A stretch of 64,000 nt of DNA, taken from Paramecium tetraurelia (lineage: Eukaryota). The DNA is taken from positions 124,001-188,000 of the forward strand of contig CT868021.1 in NCBI GenBank assembly GCA_000165425.1, in the 5' to 3' direction. Below, in pieces: positions 1,717 to 18,149 of the stretch. Below the pieces are notes generated by a model, which searched no databases, was not told the origin of the DNA, and was given only the letters and a program-made list of their open reading frames with translations. How positions within the stretch are numbered: position 1 is the stretch's first letter; every line of letters begins with the position of its first letter. The position numbers and the translations under genes are program-made.

Positions 1717-3620
<1,904 letters not shown>

Positions 3621-3882: not shown

Positions 3883-6800
3883 TCATAAATTCATTTTTCT
3901 ATAAGACTGATTTGGGGATATGATAGCACTCTCGAAAACTTGATCAAACTATTGATCTCCCTACCACCTGTAGGTTGGAATATTATCAGATTCTAAATCT
4001 TCCGAACAATCGGTTATTTGATGCTTTTTAATTTCTTATTTAGGATTGTCATTGGAAACAATTTATTGATCAATTTCCTCATCCAGAAATTCGTTGCAAT
4101 CTTAATCTAAACTAAATGATTAGAGGAAGAATATACTAATTGTTGTTGTTAGCTTTTTAATCTTCCGATGAATCTTTTTCATCGAGATCTGCATCTGTGA
4201 AATGCTACTGCTTGACACAGACTTTCTTAATAAGCTTTTTAGAGTAGGCTTCCCAAGCCTTATAAAGAATGAGAACAGTTAAATAGTCATGTAAAATGTT
4301 GAAGTTTGCCTTGAGGTGTAAAATAGGAGAAATATTGCTTCTTTACAAGAACCGATTCCTTCTGTAATACATCAATCTCAACTACATTTCTTTATTGAAC
4401 TGCTTGATTTTTTTAATCGAAGAGTGAGGCCCATTCTTAAATACCTCCTCATGATAGCAAACTCGAAATAGTTCATACATTAGTTAATTGTATTGAATGT
4501 ATCCATAATGATCACTACAATATACCTAATAAGAAATACCATTAGATTTTGAAGGACGATGCCAATTTGCCAACATCCCAAAGATTTTCATCAATTCCGC
4601 CTCCCAATGGTTTGCCTATATCTAAAAGGAAGCGACAAAGAAATTTGTAATGCATGGCTTACCCTTGAGTCTCCGATGAATATTTGCACCAAATAGTCTT
4701 GATCTTGTCAACATTTTCCACGTAAGTCTGGATCATAGAGTTTTGTAACATAAAGAACTGTTCGAATTGTTCCACCAAGCCGAGGACAAATAAATTCAAG
4801 AGAACGTAATTAGACAGTAACATAAACAAGAAGAAGTAGATTTGGTTATAGATGCTTCCACAATATTGGTCATCTTCTACGCAAAAAGGATTATAAAACA
4901 TAGTGTCTGTCATAATGGTTCTCCAATCATCACCTGATGCGCATTTGAATAGAGCCAACATAGCTTATGCAACATTCTGGAAATTGATTTGATCATCCAT
5001 CACTTGGCCCTTTTCAAGATGCCCATACATTTGACAACCAAAAAGAGCGAAAATGAACATGGTAATGATGAGTATAGCAAATATTTTACCTAAGAATGGC
5101 ATAGCAAAGACCATCACTCTCATTAGTCTCTACAGATTGATTAAGCCCTGGAATATCAAGATAATTCTTAAACATCGAAGAGCAAAGAACAATCGCAAAA
5201 ACTGATATCCATCATCAGCTGGAGTGGATTTGAAGTATACTAATGCCCAATCTGCTTGGTAATCTGCAATAATATCAATAATTGCAATAGTGATTAAGAA
5301 GAAGTAGAATCTTCTCCAATGATTATCAAAATAACGATTGACTCCTAGAGCCAAAAAGAGGAGTATGTTCCACATTATGTACAAGTACATCAACGTATTA
5401 TGAGTATTATTAAGAGCATTGAAAAAGTCTTCGTCCATTTCTGAATAAAATAATAATAGGACAAATAAATCTATCAGCAGAAGACAAAACATTATCTTTT
5501 GACATGTAGAATTATTGGTTAGATCAGATGCAAATCTTCTTATCGTTGAAGTAGGAGGGGAGGAATAAATGGGGAAATCCTTAATAATGATTTATGAAAT
5601 CTCCATGAATTCAACCTGAGCTTTAGTGATGTCCGATCTTTCAATTTTACTCTGATTGTCTTTCAAATTCGAATACAACACACCTGTGAATAAACTCAGG
5701 AAGAACATTGATCCTATGAAACAAAACACCAAGAAAAAGAAGTATGTGGGGATATAACTATTAAATGCAACTGGCCCAATGTCAGAACTCTAACTGTTCT
5801 CTGCAATTTATAAGATTTCACCCCATCCATCAAAGGTTGAAACCACAAAAAGTGTTGGAATAGCAATTGTAATATTATCGAAATTATGCTTGTAATTAAT
5901 CCAAGTTCTATTCTATTCTAAACAATCATTCTTGTTCACATTGAATTGCACTTTATCATCACAATATCCAAATTACTGTTCATACAATATAATTCCATAC
6001 ACTCCAAATATTATCCAAACTGAAAGCATTGTTATCAAAACATTCCAAATATCAGCTAATGATCTTCCTAATGCCAATCTCAATTTATCTAACCATGACA
6101 ATCTATACATTAGTTTCATCACTCTAAAGTAACCAAAATACAATAAGAATTTGACAATAGGCTTCTTTTCATCATTAGATAAAAAGTGAAAGCAGAATGA
6201 TATAATGTAGATTACATCAATTATCTACCATGTGTATGTAATATACGATCCTTTATTCATCCACATCCCTTTTGCTATGCTACCAATGACTACTTCAAAG
6301 AGGAAAACGATGTTAGCCACAAATTGCAAAACCTCGGGGTAGTATTCTGAATTCTCTTCGTAATCATTGTAGGTCTTCAAGGCAAATACAATTGTGGAGA
6401 AGTACAATACTATGTCCATAAAGTAATTAAAAAATTAAGATGTGACTATTTGACAACAGAATATTCTCATATAATTCTCTTTGGAGAATATATATAATGA
6501 TTACTAACATTAAATACCTTCATACAATTAGGGATATTAATTTAAAATATCCTTATGCACTTATTCTAATTATATATTAAGCAATAAATACTTATTGACT
6601 TCATCAAATTTGTAATTGGTGTCTACTTTGTTTTCTTTGGTTGACTATCAATCAAATTCGCTTAGGAAATCAAGGGTTACAAATTTAACTGAAATTCCTA
6701 CATTTCCTATTCTTCAGTAATTTGTGAATTTTGATCTTCTGGCTATTCATTATTCTTATCCTCATTGTCCTTTTCTACAGATTCTTCCTATTCATTCATT

Positions 6801-9800
6801 TCTTTATTAATGGCTCCAAATCCATCCAATAATATAGCCAATACTAATCCATATGTAATGTAATTCAATACTATAACCATGGAATACGAGTAGATTACAG
6901 CAAACACATAATTGATATTTCCTCCCATCACATATACGCCATACCAGTCATCATTGGTCATAATATTGAATATAGTCATAAATGCTTTTAAAATATTATC
7001 GTATGAATGCAATTGACCTAGAGCATCCGTTTAATCAAACACACCTGCATACATCTCCATTCCAATCATTGCATAAATAAATATAACTAGAAACATCAGA
7101 AATGTTAAGTAGATGTATTATTTGAATGTTTTTTAAGCTATATGACCAATAGCTACTGCCATCTTATTATATTTTAACACTCTGTAGAATAGTAAGCATT
7201 TTGTTCCTCTAATCAAACGCAAGTTTTATTCACTTAAACTAGTCATTAATGAACTCATTGTTAATTCTATGAAATTTAAGATGACTATGCAAGATTAAAG
7301 TACTTAATCTGGACTATTTGCAATATCTTTCCAGGAAAACGCAATAAATCTCAGAATCAACTCAATACATAAAAATATAGTTGACACGTCCTCCTCATTT
7401 GATATTGTAACTGAATCTGCTATTCCTTACAAAGAGAGAAATGTAAAATTGATCAATATTACGAAATCAAAAAACAATTGGCAAACTTGAGATGTAATGA
7501 GTAGATATGAATACTTCTTTATTGTATCAATCTTTCCATACAAACCCAACATCCAAATCTAGATATCAATTACATTTAATCTCTTAAGCACATCTCTAAA
7601 ATTAAATAATCTCTTTTCATTCAACTTCAATACATCATTCCCAGACCATGTTTTCTTACTAATTAGAGTCTACTGAAAATCCTTTTTTCTCAACAATCTA
7701 TATTAAAATTCATTTGATGATTGATCAATTCTATTTTTCTATATTTTTGCTTTTATCTTCTAACAAACTCCATCATAATTTAGATAATATCCCTATATAT
7801 AAACAAAGTATTGATCCTGCCTTTTTATGAAAAATGGAACTTGTTAATCATTTTAGGTGGCTTTTTGCTTGGAAGAATACTTCATAGTCATCTTTTGAGT
7901 TATATGACGTTGCTCTATTGAATTGTTAGTTTCATTTTCATTATTCTCTGTAACATTGAGTATGATTCGTTTCACTTTATTAACAGGGAACTAAGAAGTT
8001 TGCTTATGGTCTTTGAAAATTTGTTGAATTTTAGTTTGCTTGATATCTGGATACATTATTGGAATTTTAACATATCTCATGTTGAGGATTTCTTTTTCTA
8101 TTTCTTTCTTCTCACAATCAGGTAAACTATTAATTACATAATCAAATACTTCAAAGTAGGTAAAACATCTCCTTCGCTTGAAAATGTTTATTATATTTAT
8201 TTATTAAGACAAGATTGCATTTGGGAAAATGAAAAGGATTTTAGCCTTTCTAAAATTTACAACTCAATTTCATCTTCCGTATACTTTTTTATACGAATTC
8301 TTTTCTATTTCTCCTATAAAATCAAAAACTTTGGTAACAATAAATTCTTGATTGTCAAATTCTATAAATAAATCCAAATTCTTTTTATCCAATTGATCTA
8401 ACATAATTGTAATATTCATTACATCCTCAATCTACTCTTCGTTTTTCTTTTATTTTGCAGACAAAATTCTTGTTTATTTGTTCTCCCCCTAATCAATGGT
8501 CATTTCTTCCAATGGGAAATTACGATATGTATTTCGCAAAGCCTATCTGTACTTCTTTATCACTTGAAAGAAATTCCTATAACGTAAGAATGCAACATCA
8601 AAGACATTTACAATATCTCTTTCAGGTATTTCTCTGTTTTCCTTGATCTTTTATTCAATTTTCCTCCTCTCCTCCTCTTAAGCATTCTCCTCAGTCGCCT
8701 CAGCATAATGAATCTTAATAACTGCTATCACCAAATTAAACCCAAAAAAACCACAGACAAAAATAATTAATAAATAATAAAGCCAAGTCCAAGGGTGATA
8801 TATTCTCATAGTAAAAAACATAACCCAACTCCAATCATCCATTGTAATAGTCCTTAAGACTTAGCCATAAGAATAAATTACAGTATTAAACGAAGTGGGT
8901 AGTTTAGGAGTGAATGAAGAATATTAACATGACATTCCATCCTCAAAACATGAGTTCTGATTACATTAAATCCACCCGTCTGTTTCATCACCATTATCAT
9001 ATTGGCATCTATAGTTAAATAAGCCTTAGAACAAAAAGACTCCACAAATTGCAAAGAACACTGAAAAAAGACCGACAATCATTAAAGCTTCCAGTAAAAA
9101 TCTGAAGGATTACTTTAAAGCCTTTAACATTACACCTAATCCAGCAAAAATGTCTCCCAAATAGAGTAACAATGTGATCACTCTAAGCGGTGACACATCA
9201 ACTTTAAATGTATCTGGATATGTTAAATTTAACACATATATGATGACCAAAATACAATCCATAATGTCCTAAAAATTTCTAAAGAAGGCTCTTTTTGGTA
9301 TTATAATTCCTGATGCAATTACCCTAAGACACAATTCTATTAAAAAACAAATCATGATTCCCTTCTCCATATCTTTTGTGGCTAATGAGTCTTACTTTGT
9401 CTACGAGTAAATGTATAAAGTAACATTAAATAGAATCAAAAAGGACATACAAATTTTAAAAAAGACACTTTACACTATTTTCTTACATAAAATGGGGATA
9501 AATAATGAGTAAAATACGAGTCGTTTTCTTAATTTTAAAAATTATTAATCGTCATGATAAGCCTCGTTATTAATGAAATTATTACATCAAGTTCATAATG
9601 CAGCCTTTCAAATCCGTGTAAATCTATTAGTTTCACATAGTAAGGATCTTCGAAGGGATTTCTTTCATATAGTTTCTTATATTTTCTTTTGATTTTGCTG
9701 TCTTCCTATTAATGGTCAATGTAATCTTCATCTTCGCTATCGGAAAGATTTTATTAATTTTTTTTAGTTTAATTGATTAATAACTTTGATTGAAACATAT

Positions 9801-10377
9801 TTCTTTAACTTGCGCGTGATCTTTTTAATGATTTATGGGATGATAAAACTTCACTGTTTTGTGAAATAAGCTATTTATCTCCGATACATTGTTTTTGTAA
9901 ACTAATGTCCTATTTTAGTCCCCATTAATGTTCAAAATCTAGAAATTAAATTTTTAAAACTGATCTTTCCATCCCATCCGACATATCTAAGGGATTAATC
10001 AAATCTTATTCAAAGGACATATTGGGTATGATAAGTTTATCTTATACTTAAAAAAAAGATGAGCGTCCCTATTGAAAACTTCCCAAATTATCCTTCAAAA
10101 TTATAGATTAATTAAATGATCTTTTGTCATTTTCTGAATCACTTGAGAAGGAAGAAGAGCTTCGAGATAAACCCTTATTCATGGAGACATTCACTTTTTA
10201 TTTGCTTTTATTAGATGAAACTGAATGTTTGCTTCCCAACATTCGATTTTTGCTATCATCTGAAATTTAGTTTTGAATGTTCGCTTTTCTATTAGCGATT
10301 TCTTTTGAGATTGAGAAATGCTTCTTAGTCGTTCTAACTTTTTTTTCAGAAACTATCCTGTCTTTAATTTTTTGCAT
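3883..10377 (-). CDS. four-domain (Cav/Nav-type) cation channel alpha subunit
   Basis: ATG10377 (MQKIKDRIV). Four 6TM repeats with pore loops TMDDW (8831-8845), TNDDW (6944-6958), TFDGW (5823-5837) and SGDDW (4923-4937). S6 of repeat IV reads LLSNYVLLNLFVLGLVEQF. Ends YRKMNL* at 3883. Confidence 0.9.
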
Positions 10378-10895: not shown

Positions 10896-11834
10896 ATGTT
10901 GAACAAACCAAGATCAAGATTGCCCCCTCAACTATTGATTACTCCTAAATATGATGAAAACCTTGTAAATTGCAAAACCCAAGAGGATACTGTTAAAGAA
11001 TATAAAAGAAATACAAGTTACCAATAAAGAACTAGTTAGTAGAAGTATAATTTTCAGTTGTGCCATTAAATCGGGAAGGGATAATTCAGCAAAGTAATGC
11101 TTGTCAAGTAATAATTAACAATATGAGCAACTAGAAATGCTGGCGCTTTTTATGCTTTAAAGATGATTGACAAAAAGCTGATCCAAAAGTACAATATTGC
11201 TTAATAAGTCTAAAGAGAAATTGACATTTAATCATCAATATAGCACCCAAACATAGTTAAAATTTTCGGCAATTTCCAAGACAATGACTATGTCTATTTA
11301 ATAACTGAGTATTGTGAAAAAGGAAATTTGTTCTAAAAATAATTCTCCGAGGAAGATATAAAAAAAATAACTAAGCAAATTTTACTTGGAATCCAATACC
11401 TCCATTCAATGGGGATCATGCATAGAGATTTGAAGCCAGAGAATATCTACTTGACATCAGATAACAAAATTAAGATAGGAGACTTTGGCTTTTCTAATTA
11501 TAAAGGCAGAAGAAAGACTTTCTGTGGCACTCCTGAGTATATGCCGCCAGAGATTGTGATTTCTCAGGCGAATAAAACTTACTATCATGGGTATGATGAA
11601 AGAGTAGATATATGGGCCGTAGGAATATTATTATTTGAGTTGTGCAATGATACAGTTCCTTTTAGAGATATTGATCGAAATAGGCAGTAAGATAGGATTT
11701 GCAGGGAGCCCATCTAATTCAAAGAGGGTTAAGATTTAAATCTCATAGACTTTATTTAAAAATGTTTGTAAAAAGATCCTAATTAAAGGGCTGCAATACA
11801 AGAATTACTGCTACACCCATACTTATAAATTTGA
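10896..11834 (+). CDS. Ser/Thr protein kinase, Aurora-like
   Basis: IGKGQFSKV (Q from TAA), YALK, REIDIQ, HPNIV, HRDLKPEN, DFGFS, RRKTFCGTPEYMPPE, VDIWAVG. Intron 11108-11134. Confidence 0.9.
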
Positions 11835-13468: not shown

Positions 13469-16400
13469 TCATTCATATTCACTGATAGCTTCTAAGATGC
13501 ATGCGATTGACCAAGCCTAAGCTCTACATGAAAACACATTGTATTCTCCATTTCCATTGGTCATTTCTGGCAAGGAGTACCTAATAATAATTTCACTAGC
13601 ATTACCATTCATTTTGATGCAGAGTCATTTTGTGGTTTGATAAATAAGAATAAAATAGAGTTCTATTGATATGCTCTTTGCCATGAATAACTACTAAGGC
13701 TTTTAAAAAATATCCATAAACCCAAACCCACTCTGGTCCATTGTGATAAGAGAATCCATGAGATACATTGAAGATTTGAGATGAATCACTGTTATCGTAG
13801 AAATGAATATATTCTGAGGCAGCAGGATCAAGAGTCTTGACACCAATTGAATTCTCTCTTAATAAACATGCTTCAACAGCAGCGAGATGGAACTTGGCCT
13901 TTTCTTTGTGGAATAGTTCAGGAGCTAATCCAATAGCTATGCTGGCATTGCACCTTAATTAGTATTCATTTCTAGGCTTGGAAGACTTGACAAGATCCTT
14001 ATAGATTTGTCGATGTCTAACATGTTTTTCAACAATATGATAATCTTGGTAATTTGGATCATGTTACTTTGGAATGTAGTAATAACTTTCAAAATTGGCG
14101 ACTAAGAAATGGGACCATTCTTTGAAGAGTAGTTTCTTGCCATTAGGACAAATAACACCATCAAAAGGATAATGAGGATGAGCATGACTAACGAAATCTA
14201 AGCAAACTTTGAGAAGAGCAGTCAATTCAATAGGTGCTCCATCTCTACTAGTAGCAGGAATTCCTCTATTAATTTCTGATGAACCCATTTTATCCATCCA
14301 TGTCAAACAATTTAACCAATTTCCACCAACAATAAAACCAGTCTATTCATCTAGACTCAATTAAATGTTGAATCCTTCTGATTACATACAATTATCTATT
14401 TAGCCTCCTGCTCTCCATTCTCTGAATTTGATTCCAGAGGCATGACTCTAAAAGATCTTCTGAATAATTTCTGCTATTGTTTTCTTTATGACAATGCCTT
14501 ATGATTTCAATTAGTAATGTTTATCTATCTCATCATCTAGAAATACCATTTAGACTTCCTCATTAAGGATGTCAGTCTTTCCAGCATATTACACATAATC
14601 TTTGACTGCCTTAATGTACCACCAACAAGCATCTCTGCAATTATACCTTGGATTATTGCAAGAATCTAATAAGTTGGGAATGAGTCCGTGTCTTAAACAA
14701 GAACCAAAAGTTAACAGAGCATCTTTTGCTTCAGCCAGTAATCCATTTTCTAGATATATTCCCTTAAAGGATATGAAAGTGTCTCTGCCCCATGATCTGG
14801 CCCAACCAGTAGTAAAATGGGGTAATCCAGCTGCCATCTATTTAGATGAAGGCAACTCTGCAATAAATTGATACGAAGCTAGTTTTAACTCTCTTCTGAA
14901 TTATGATGTTTAGAGATTAGCTATGGAGAGCATACAATAGTTGTAGATGTAATCAACAAATTTACAGAAATAGGAAGGGATATGATGGCGAGGGATACCT
15001 TTGATTTATTGAGTGATGACATTTACTAATTTAGATACTTCCAATTATCCAAGTTATCGTTGTACTCTATCATTTAAATAGTCCAATAACCAATTTCCAT
15101 TTCTCAGATTTTCACAGATGGGATGTGCCAAATTGTTGTTTGTTTATGCTTCTCTTGTGGCAGAACGAGGACCAGCAAAGCCAGCATAAATAAGTTGTCT
15201 GTAATTAGGAATAAAATACAATCCTGTATTATTTTTGTCTCTCTCTTCAGGTTCAGACATAAAGAGTAAGTAATTTAGTTAATAAGAACTCAATGCATTG
15301 AAATGTACTTATTAGGATGCATCATTCAAGTGAGTGTCTAGGGATTACAAATGTTTCTCTTATTCAGAGTCAATTTGGCATTCAATGATGGCTGTAAATG
15401 AAGAAGGCAATTTAATGAACATTAATTCATTGCCTTGGATTTCAGCAAACTCTCGCAGATTTCGATGTTAAATAATTTTGACTGTCGATCCCTCTATGAA
15501 TTGATTGTTTTATTCAGGATGTTGTATAAAGTCTTCATGATAGAAGATAGCATCTACTTTGACGAGTTTTCCAGGTAATTTGATTGTACTAAATGGATTT
15601 GGAACTCCAAAAGAAGGAACAGTAATCAAAACCTTGGATCTACATTTGTCTTGAGTTTCTCTGGTGATGGTTTGAATGGTGTTGCCTTGATGTTAACAGA
15701 AGATAAAAGGGAACTAGTGGTTCAGTTCCTTTTTTATCTAATGTAATTTGAGTCTAATCAATTCCATTGTTGAATGAGATTTGGTTGGATTAGGTTCTAC
15801 TATTAGTTTCCTATTAGTGTGGTCAATCCAATTGGAGTTGACTTTATATTTGTATTCATATTATCCTTCATTCAACATTAGAGTATGAATGTAAGTGTTC
15901 TTATGGGCAATCAAAAGTAAGCCTTCTTTCCAGTCATCCCATGATCCAAACACTTCAACCTATTAATCTGGTAATCCATCATATCGAAATGCTATCTCTG
16001 ACTGTCTTTCAACACTTACTTGTTCTGTTGGAGCAACAACATTGTAGATTCTTCTCTCGCCTACAACTGATAACTTATGTGGCAAGAAACAATCATATCC
16101 CCTAACAGATCCACCCATACAACTACTAAAAGTAATTAAGGCAGCTATTGGCAATTGATGTTTGTAATCGTGAGTTTAGAGCAATGACTAATTATCATGA
16201 GATTACTCATAAATCAGAGCAGGACTATACTAAGGTTAGAGGATAGTGAAGCTTTCATTAATTGATTCGAATTGCTCTTGCAATTTGGGTAAAGATCCAA
16301 TTGATACTCGTCCATCTCCACTATAGTAATGCAATTCTCTATTCAGATGACCAGCATCATGACATCTGTTAGTTTCCCTAACCAAACAGTTGATTCCCAT

Positions 16401-18149
16401 AGTTTTAGTAAAGATTGAATCTTTCTCTGATGATCCAGTAAACAACTCAGCAAACACTAAGATATTGGGATTAGCCTTCCTTGCCTTCCTCATCATATAC
16501 TCTCTAATTTAAGATCAATTAAATCAATTACCCTACATTCATGGGTGTTGAATGGGCATTATCCAATCTCAACCCTGAGAATATCTTGGCCATCTATTGA
16601 ACATATTTCTTCATGTATTTCCACAATGCTGGGCTATCCTATTTCTTGTGTCCATATCTGAGTTTCACCAAATCACCCCAAATCACAATTGTCCTTCTCA
16701 AATAATGGTGTTCCTGATTCTCTGCAAAATTATTCAAAGGATCAAAGCCTTAAATCCATCCATTATTTGCCACATAACTCCCATTGCTTAATTTAGTGAA
16801 GTATCTGGGAACCAAGGAGTCTCCCTTGTCATTTACTTCCACAAAGGGCTTCTTCTGTGTCAACTTCCACCATGTGACCTACCCTTTTGTTGAATTCACA
16901 GCCTCCTTGATGTAGGACTCAGCTTCATTCCAGTATTGATGATTGTAATATTGCAACAATTCTTGAATGTATTCCAACGACACCTTCTTGTAATTCTCAT
17001 CCTTACTACCATTAATATTTAATACTTTACTTTAGAAATTCAACTATCACATCGTAATTTAAAGACACTCCATACTCTTTATACCCTTTCAGGATTGTCT
17101 CCTATCCTACCAACTGCAACATAATTTCACTTGCACTCTTGATGAAGATGTTCTGGTTCTCCTCCAATTATTCACTCTTGCTTTAAACTATCTTATTGCA
17201 TCTACTCTGTATTTCATTGATCACTGCATTCGTATTGAACTAAAAATATCCATGAATATTCAATTTCCTTATGTACTCATGTTCCAATATGTCCATTATT
17301 TGATTAAGATCCTCCTCATTATAAATAGTATTCCTTGGATACTGAGTCAACAATCCAGATCCTAACTTATTACTAAATTCAGCTATGGCACAATCTAATT
17401 TTATGGCTGCCTCTAAATGAGGGGAATTCTTCACATTATAAGTCGCATTCTCAAATTCTGATTGCACTAACCAACTCGAATCAAATGCTGTATGATTTAA
17501 CAAGATATCTATAAAAAAGTATGAATTTGGAAATTTATCAAAGAGTTATTTTAAATCATCATAAGTGTGAATCCCAAAAATATCAGTATTCAATTTCTGT
17601 TAATCGGCTATTGCATATAAACTGGGTGATTGACCCAATTGCTAAATAGGCGGAAAATGAAATGCTTCATAACCCAAATCGACTTGAGAACGAATTTACT
17701 TTTCATAATCTTTTCAAATTTACCCAAACAGTATGGTAGCAATGTTTATATAGTTACATCTTAGAGCTTCTCCACATCATTTGGTTAAACAATTATATGA
17801 TTCTCCACTCCCAATACTCTACAGAATTGTCTTAGGCGAAAAACCAACACAATCTCAAATAAGCTGCCCCAGCCAATGCAAACTCAACATCCACCTTCCA
17901 ATCCCCAGACGAATCGAGAGTAAACGCCTTAACCTCATGATGCAGTTGTATTTGTTTCAGAGTTAAATTCTCCATCTCATGTACATGCTTGTACCCTTTT
18001 TACATGATCAAGTACGGATGATAACCTTATTTGCGATTGCGAACAAAGATTCTTACTATCTAATTTTGACGTGCATAGATGGCCTTATCATGACTACCTT
18101 CAATCTCTCCCTATTAATTTAGTTCTAAAAAGTATCTCTCTTATTGCAT
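13469..18149 (-). CDS. AGL: glycogen debranching enzyme (4-alpha-glucanotransferase / amylo-1,6-glucosidase)
   Basis: [100 protein letters not shown]. Apparent frameshift near 17712. Confidence 0.93.

Follow-up and report, generated by a model that had tools for sequence, protein, structure and literature searches.

Paramecium tetraurelia contig CT868021.1 carries, on the minus strand at positions 3883..10377 of the 64,000-nucleotide window analysed here (contig positions 124,001 to 188,000), a gene for a four-repeat cation channel of 24 transmembrane (TM) segments whose pore loops all have aspartate at the selectivity filter. The gene comprises seven exons, and its open reading frame, running from 10377 to 3883, encodes 2115 residues in the ciliate code. 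Direct observation gives a four-repeat architecture, four filter aspartates, loss of charge from the S4 voltage-sensor helices, a large family of paralogues, purifying selection and low transcription. We read the protein as a Cav-derived member of an all-aspartate (D/D/D/D, for repeats I to IV) clade, likely conducting Ca2+ under weak or altered voltage control and not the carrier of the ciliary action potential, a composite reading that we hold, on sequence grounds, with about even confidence.

The filter aspartates lie in the motifs TMDDW of repeat I (motif at residue 504; Asp codon at 8837-8839, minus strand, as for all features of the gene), TNDDW of repeat II (residue 1117; 6950-6952), TFDGW of repeat III (residue 1482; 5829-5831) and SGDDW of repeat IV (residue 1782; 4929-4931), and each is encoded by GAT. 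The initial annotation had given each of the four motifs a filter aspartate, and alignment with Cav channels confirmed this, the aspartates falling in register with the Cav glutamates. Thus, TMDDW aligns with TMEGW of Cav2.3 repeat I, TNDDW with TQEDW of Cav3.3 repeat II, TFDGW with TFEGW of Cav1.2 repeat III and SKDGW of Cav3.2 repeat III, and SGDDW, in a cross-repeat comparison, with the repeat II pore loop of Cav1.2, TGEDW. A profile alignment likewise puts the four residues in one column. Six-frame translation of the window yields five instances of the pattern [ST]xD[DG]W, and four of these are the pore loops of the channel. The residue that follows the filter position (+1) is aspartate in repeats I, II and IV and glycine in repeat III, and seven of the eight residues at positions 0 and +1 are acidic. 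This count is also seven in 18 of 23 P. tetraurelia D/D/D/D genes and six in the other five, while it is four or five in all 75 channels with a glutamate ring (E/E/E/E); in the ciliary channel CaV1a it is five.

The four Pfam Ion_trans repeats, each spanning S1-S6, lie in one chain, as in 24-TM channels: repeat I at 8699..9487, with four cysteines in its L5 turret; repeat II at 6812..7504, with a short turret and no cysteine; repeat III at 5661..6449, with two cysteines in the L5 turret; and repeat IV at 4755..5519, with two in the L6 turret. This 4-0-2-2 arrangement matches the turret cysteine pattern of other four-repeat channels (PMC6259924), and the III-IV linker, at ~59 residues between rough bounds, compares with 53-57 in such channels (PMC6259924). 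The single-chain model, which the initial annotation had also put forward, stands on one open frame and is further supported because the P. primaurelia and P. octaurelia orthologues are colinear with it (90.7% identity over 2115 columns with two gap positions, and 96.6% with no gap, respectively). Orthologues are present in four sister species. The best whole-chain matches in the PDB were Cav3.2 (2e-68) and Cav1.2 (1e-67), with NALCN at 1e-24. In most Cav channels of the PDB, repeats I, III and IV each found their best match in the repeat of the same number, and repeat II did so for Cav3.3, Cav1 and Cav2, with repeat IV preferred for Cav3.1 and Cav3.2. The channel thus shares with animal Cav1, Cav2 and Cav3 its repeat colinearity, turret cysteines, linker length and a Cav-like C-tail. 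By contrast, the animal channels have EEEE or EEDD filters, intact S4 helices and, in Cav1, a canonical IQ motif, are only ~25% identical to it and fall in separate clades. Of the E/E/E/E filter and four charge-rich S4 helices that define high-voltage-activated Cav1 and Cav2 and the ciliary CaV1a-c, the channel has neither.

The initial annotation had described a Ca2+-permeable channel with a CatSper-like filter. As a filter analogy this holds: every pore loop of CatSper1-4 has a filter aspartate set in a TxD(D/G)W pattern, as in CatSper3 (TVDGWTD) and CatSper4 (TQDGWVD) (PMC7041947), and Ca2+ permeability is the likeliest reading of the pore. Any special kinship beyond the analogy is unsupported. 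CatSper1-4 are four separate single-repeat subunits with auxiliary subunits, whereas the Paramecium pore is one chain, and the sequence match is weak. CatSper scored 20.6, 21.3 and 45.6 bits against repeats II, III and IV, respectively, and was not among the best 60 PDB matches for repeat I, although CatSper4 was, at that 45.6 bits, the best single-repeat match for repeat IV. Whole-chain Cav scores, by comparison, add up more than one repeat; single-repeat scores stood at 62.6 and 56.5. A tree built from the 104 repeats of 26 channels grouped them by number (26, 26, 25 and 26 of 26 for repeats I to IV; Shimodaira-Hasegawa-like approximate likelihood ratio test (SH-aLRT) support 82-99). CatSper kinship is rejected on the per-repeat PDB scores, far below those of Cav, together with this grouping by repeat number, in trees that, like the concatenated ones, contain no CatSper sequence. 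A search of the P. tetraurelia genome for the CatSper beta and gamma families gave no match and was uninformative, as control queries went unmatched too.

The concatenated tree unites the D clade and a metagenomic sister, P0071, with Paramecium, Tetrahymena and Ichthyophthirius channels of the E/E/E/E type (SH-aLRT 99.9), the E/E/E/E partner being the clade of CaV1a-like channels. The aspartate ring is best read, from these trees, as derived from a glutamate ring and convergent with that of CatSper. P0071 is an unnamed four-repeat channel with an S/D/D/E filter and largely intact S4 charges (4/6/7/6); three per-repeat trees agree with the concatenated one in making it the sister of the D clade, and it may be an intermediate or a long-branch artefact.

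The gene has a prior record. Pozdnyakov et al. 2018 (PMC5824947) list as Paramt29 the protein XP_001430212.1 (GSPATT00032666001), which is 99.86% identical to the channel, the sole difference being the intron 4 acceptor, where the public model is 2 residues shorter. The same paper describes a ciliate subclade, Ic, in which the D/D/D/D filter predominates, one or more S4 helices are poor in Arg/Lys, a motif lies at the IQ position and the inactivation-gate residues are polar. The channel shares the filter, S4 and gate features, and at the IQ position it has a string without canonical IQxxxR. The Paramt29 gate (SDIT), its four S4 strings and its IQ-position string are identical to those of the channel gene, and this set of four S4 strings recurs at none of the 40 other loci examined. 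Judged by these filter and S4 features and by our own trees, which set the D clade beside ciliate E/E/E/E channels in a topology matching that of subclade Ic within ciliate clade I, Paramt29 appears to belong to subclade Ic. Two differences emerge: the paper calls the pre-IQ region undetectable, whereas a pre-IQ homologue aligns in the channel, and it gives 20 entries with this S4 type, against 27 clade members here. DDDD is also listed among non-animal four-repeat filters by Fux et al. 2018 (PMC6259924). Filter, subclade and gene were therefore already catalogued in 2018 and are not new, and the sequence feature itself carries little weight. The initial annotation overlooked this entry, as it did the degenerate voltage sensors and the membership of the gene in a set of at least 23 paralogues.

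To define the family, 79 candidates from the P. tetraurelia genome were scored and 40 loci fetched; a few weak loci were left out, and the counts are lower bounds. Among 41 four-repeat genes the filters are D/D/D/D in 23, E/E/E/E in eight, N/D/D/N in three, E/S/L/L in two and I/E/E/E in two, with one each of N/E/D/N, E/Q/D/E and T/E/E/E. The 23 D/D/D/D genes and the four asparagine-variant genes form one clade of 27 (support 1.00; SH-aLRT 100 on a 64-sequence subset), the largest four-repeat channel group in this genome. Purifying selection is evident in the pore modules, which against four paralogues show nonsynonymous divergence (dN) of 0.03-0.10, synonymous divergence (dS) of 1.8-2.7 and dN/dS of 0.013-0.038; only some ratios were computable, dS being saturated outside the pore modules. 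Across five Paramecium species, 38 of 43 homologues are D/D/D/D, two are without repeat IV and three have one substitution. No named D-clade member from outside Paramecium was found among 47 and 50 matches, a weak negative given that these searches (2123 candidates scored in each) missed some divergent own paralogues. Similarly, none of 122 complete four-repeat representatives was D/D/D/D, at limited sensitivity and after exclusion of 28 of the 150 listed for having fewer than four repeats, and of 57 pattern matches in a metagenome scan none could be confirmed.

Several members of the wider family are worth noting in their own right. The asparagine variants (L050, L051, L055 and L057; N/D/D/N or N/E/D/N) have lost filter charge in repeats I and IV. 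The three substituted homologues, from sister Paramecium species, have filters D/D/R/D (P0030), D/N/D/D (P0032) and D/D/N/D (P0034), the repeat III arginine of P0030 standing at the position of the Nav/NALCN lysine; these substitutions may reflect erosion or annotation error. D-clade genes are often clustered, with two or three on one contig inside 10-70 kb (G000:C458, C102, C17, C4, C39), suggesting local duplication before the whole-genome duplications. One of the two closest paralogues of the channel gene (L043) has an assembly frame break in repeat IV, and its public model ends before the repeat IV pore. Two E/S/L/L paralogues (L063 and L066, on G000:C469 and G000:C558), with largely intact S4 helices, are nested in the CaV1a-like clade and are possibly non-conducting or non-selective; four E/S/L/L proteins also occurred among the matches of a search. 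P0064 and P0204, both unnamed and incomplete, carry aspartate in each of the three repeats they contain, together with fully charged S4 helices, and are possibly an independent all-Asp lineage.

The voltage sensors of the channel are degenerate. Gating-charge columns were defined as those in which at least 70% of the 75 E/E/E/E channels have arginine or lysine. The repeat I S4 (9143..9193) has a single arginine and fills one of five such columns; that of repeat II (7172..7219) has five Arg/Lys in a broken series and fills three of five; that of repeat III (6102..6152) has its outer charges replaced and fills three of six; and that of repeat IV (5145..5201), in an uncertain register, has three arginines and fills three of five. 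CaV1a keeps every gating charge in all four S4 helices. The median S4 total of Arg and Lys is 14 in the 23 D/D/D/D genes versus 26 in the eight own E/E/E/E genes and 116 others. Charge-poor S4 helices are shared with the four-repeat channels NALCN and fungal Cch1, in which the loss was independent (PMC5824947); these channels differ in having an EEKE or EEEE filter, and NALCN matches the channel only at 1e-24. Repeat IV S3 (window 5250-5320, minus strand) starts with WRRFYF, in which the aspartate of the usual WNxFDF is absent, and the Trp-Arg is invariant in eight of eight aligned D-clade sequences; the counter-charges of sensor IV look remodelled as well.

The EF-like, pre-IQ and IQ region of Cav1 has an alignable counterpart in the proximal C-tail. 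At the IQ position lies a helix, VLILYKAWEAY (4244..4276), that keeps the hydrophobic anchors and is without the Gln and Arg of the canonical IQxxxR; CaV1a likewise has no canonical IQ. The helix is conserved across full-length Paramecium homologues, and calmodulin control of the channel is plausible on this evidence.

These features suggest a route by which the channel may have arisen and may work. It would likely derive from a ciliate E/E/E/E calcium channel, the shorter aspartate side chains widening the main filter ring and a second ring, of three aspartates at +1, restoring a Ca2+-binding site comparable to that of bacterial channels engineered to LDDW(A/S)D. Sensor I being dead and sensors III and IV diminished, the pore would need an opening signal different from normal depolarisation, the most plausible being either Ca2+/calmodulin, through the Cav-like proximal C-tail, or a negative potential. 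In the weakest step of the scheme, the channel would be placed in the membrane of the cell body and would share with many paralogues the somatic Ca2+ influx that remains once the ciliary current has been suppressed. As to selectivity, the analogies available in the literature point both ways, and we consider the channel probably permeable to Ca2+. This is the likeliest reading because seven of eight residues at positions 0 and +1 are acidic and because the LDDWAD mutant of NaChBac reaches a Ca2+ to Na+ permeability ratio (PCa/PNa) of 133 (PMC2229573). The engineered CavAb and CaChBac filters, TLDDW(S/A)D, share the double aspartate ring at 0 and +1; they differ in forming bacterial homotetramers with 12 aspartates, including a third ring, compared to the seven of the channel, which has glycine at +1 in repeat III.

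A number of observations weigh against this account. Replacing EEEE by DDDD in an animal Cav eliminated Ca2+ or Ba2+ current (cited by PMC2229573), and NavPp, which has more filter aspartates than CavMr (an extra Asp), conducts Na+, with Ca2+ acting as a blocker (PMC7041947). The repeat II S4 retains five basic residues and that of repeat IV three, and voltage gating may persist; the canonical IQ motif is absent. Branches to the D clade are long and deep nodes weak, attraction may account for part of its position among E/E/E/E channels, and FastTree support for the wider group is only 0.88. CaV1c could not be assigned to a locus, its id being duplicated in the source, and for a weakly expressed gene absence from a ciliary proteome would be weak evidence. 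A look at the literature, which did not extend to the ciliary proteome papers, found no functional or localisation study of any D-clade member.

The DDDD and NavPp precedents also favour the best-surviving alternative, that the clade consists of Ca2+/calmodulin-activated Na+ or non-selective cation channels in which monovalent ions pass a wide aspartate ring and calmodulin at the C-tail takes over from voltage as the gate. The S4 charge loss and the conserved IQ-position helix would fit such a channel, and a calmodulin-reactivated, Ca2+-dependent Na+ channel does exist in plasma-membrane patches of Paramecium (PMC9608856). However, the filter has no lysine, its double aspartate ring matches the most Ca2+-selective engineered filters (PMC2229573), the IQ helix is non-canonical and no gene was found linked to the Ca2+-dependent Na+ current; we regard this alternative as unlikely.

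Three ciliary CaV subunits have been found by proteomics and RNA interference (reviewed in PMC8535419, PMC8964087 and PMC8208649), and a preprint (10.1101/2020.01.14.906610) gives ids for CaV1a and CaV1b, the id of CaV1c there duplicating that of CaV1a. CaV1a maps to locus L053 (99.1%) and CaV1b to L060 (99.9%); both are E/E/E/E genes of a clade other than that of the channel gene, which is neither of them. L060 has an assembly frame break near 6190-6265, matching the split of CaV1b into two gene models. CaV1a and CaV1b resemble the channel in their four repeats, neighbouring clade and similar non-canonical IQ-position helix and, as known here through reviews and ids, differ in their E/E/E/E filter and full S4 charges. 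A role in ciliary Ca2+ entry, for which the initial annotation had offered the channel as a candidate, is weakened because CaV1a and CaV1b, out of three ciliary channels identified, are such genes with intact S4 helices, against the single gating charge left in the repeat I S4 here. A CatSper-like ciliary entry path operating beside CaV1a-c, for example in tuning beat frequency, would be in keeping with the filter strings and the CatSper4 match to repeat IV, and proteomics can miss low-abundance ciliary channels. Yet the cited passages of the reviews give only three ciliary CaV subunits, and the repeats descend from a four-repeat ancestor whose 4-0-2-2 turret cysteines they retain, making this path improbable.

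Two currents of the Paramecium cell body lack an assigned gene in the cited portions of the Paramecium reviews and papers. One, described in 1992, is hyperpolarisation-activated, highly Ca2+-selective and unaffected by mutations that suppress the depolarisation-activated current (PMC2229130), and is somatic (PMC8208649); the other is the Ca2+/calmodulin-gated Na+ current noted above. That the D clade, found here only in Paramecium, underlies either of these orphan currents is a tentative proposal, the link between the clade and somatic currents being hypothesis only. Under it, the clade would be a natural Cav descendant whose filter was rebuilt as a double aspartate ring and whose voltage gating was given up or inverted. 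What gives the family interest is that at least 27 related genes are kept under strong constraint with no current assigned to them, and are candidates for the somatic Ca2+ or Ca2+/calmodulin-gated currents; in the reviews, several classical Paramecium currents stand without a named gene. In addition, a natural four-repeat D/D/D/D pore would help to test why such a ring, which removes divalent current from an animal Cav, confers high Ca2+ selectivity on engineered bacterial channels.

An intracellular site appears no more probable than the ciliary one. A cation or Ca2+ release channel of the alveolar sacs, contractile vacuole or food vacuoles could have lost voltage control on an internal membrane, and S4 degeneration and a large paralogue set fit compartment-specific copies. 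Against this stand the plasma-membrane-type cysteine turrets, though these are compatible with a lumen, and the negligible TPC matches (~15 bits). That the gene is a non-conducting or decaying copy left by genome duplication, as its low read depth and the three eroded sister-species filters might suggest, is very improbable given the intact 2115-residue frame, the orthologues in four sister species, the pore dN/dS and the D/D/D/D filter kept in 38 of 43 homologues. On the same frame, orthologues and pore dN/dS, a pseudogene is rejected.

Removal of six GT..AG introns of 23-26 nt leaves 2115 codons with no internal stop in genetic code 6. Introns 1 (9563..9585, 23 nt), 2 (8398..8422, 25 nt), 3 (8127..8149, 23 nt), 5 (4515..4539, 25 nt) and 6 (4112..4136, 25 nt) follow from the spliced frame and orthologue colinearity, while intron 4 (6566..6591, 26 nt) follows from the spliced frame, the P. 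octaurelia orthologue being gap-free against the present model. In three oligo-dT RNA read sets from one study, depth over the gene was 0-2.4 per bin, indicating low transcription, and the reads were almost all sense, with orientation judged from neighbouring genes. At this shallow depth no junction of the six introns, intron 1 included, reached the listing threshold; the introns therefore rest on the orthologues and the annotation.

The neighbour on the lower-coordinate side is an AAA ATPase gene (window 1721-3617, plus strand), whose intron at ~3454 was seen in an RNA contig, and the other flank holds a Ser/Thr protein kinase gene (window 11127-11834, plus strand); neither gives a hint of channel function. 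Farther along, a 973-residue open frame on the minus strand (window 13593-16514) looks, by eye, like the C-terminal part of a glycogen debranching enzyme.

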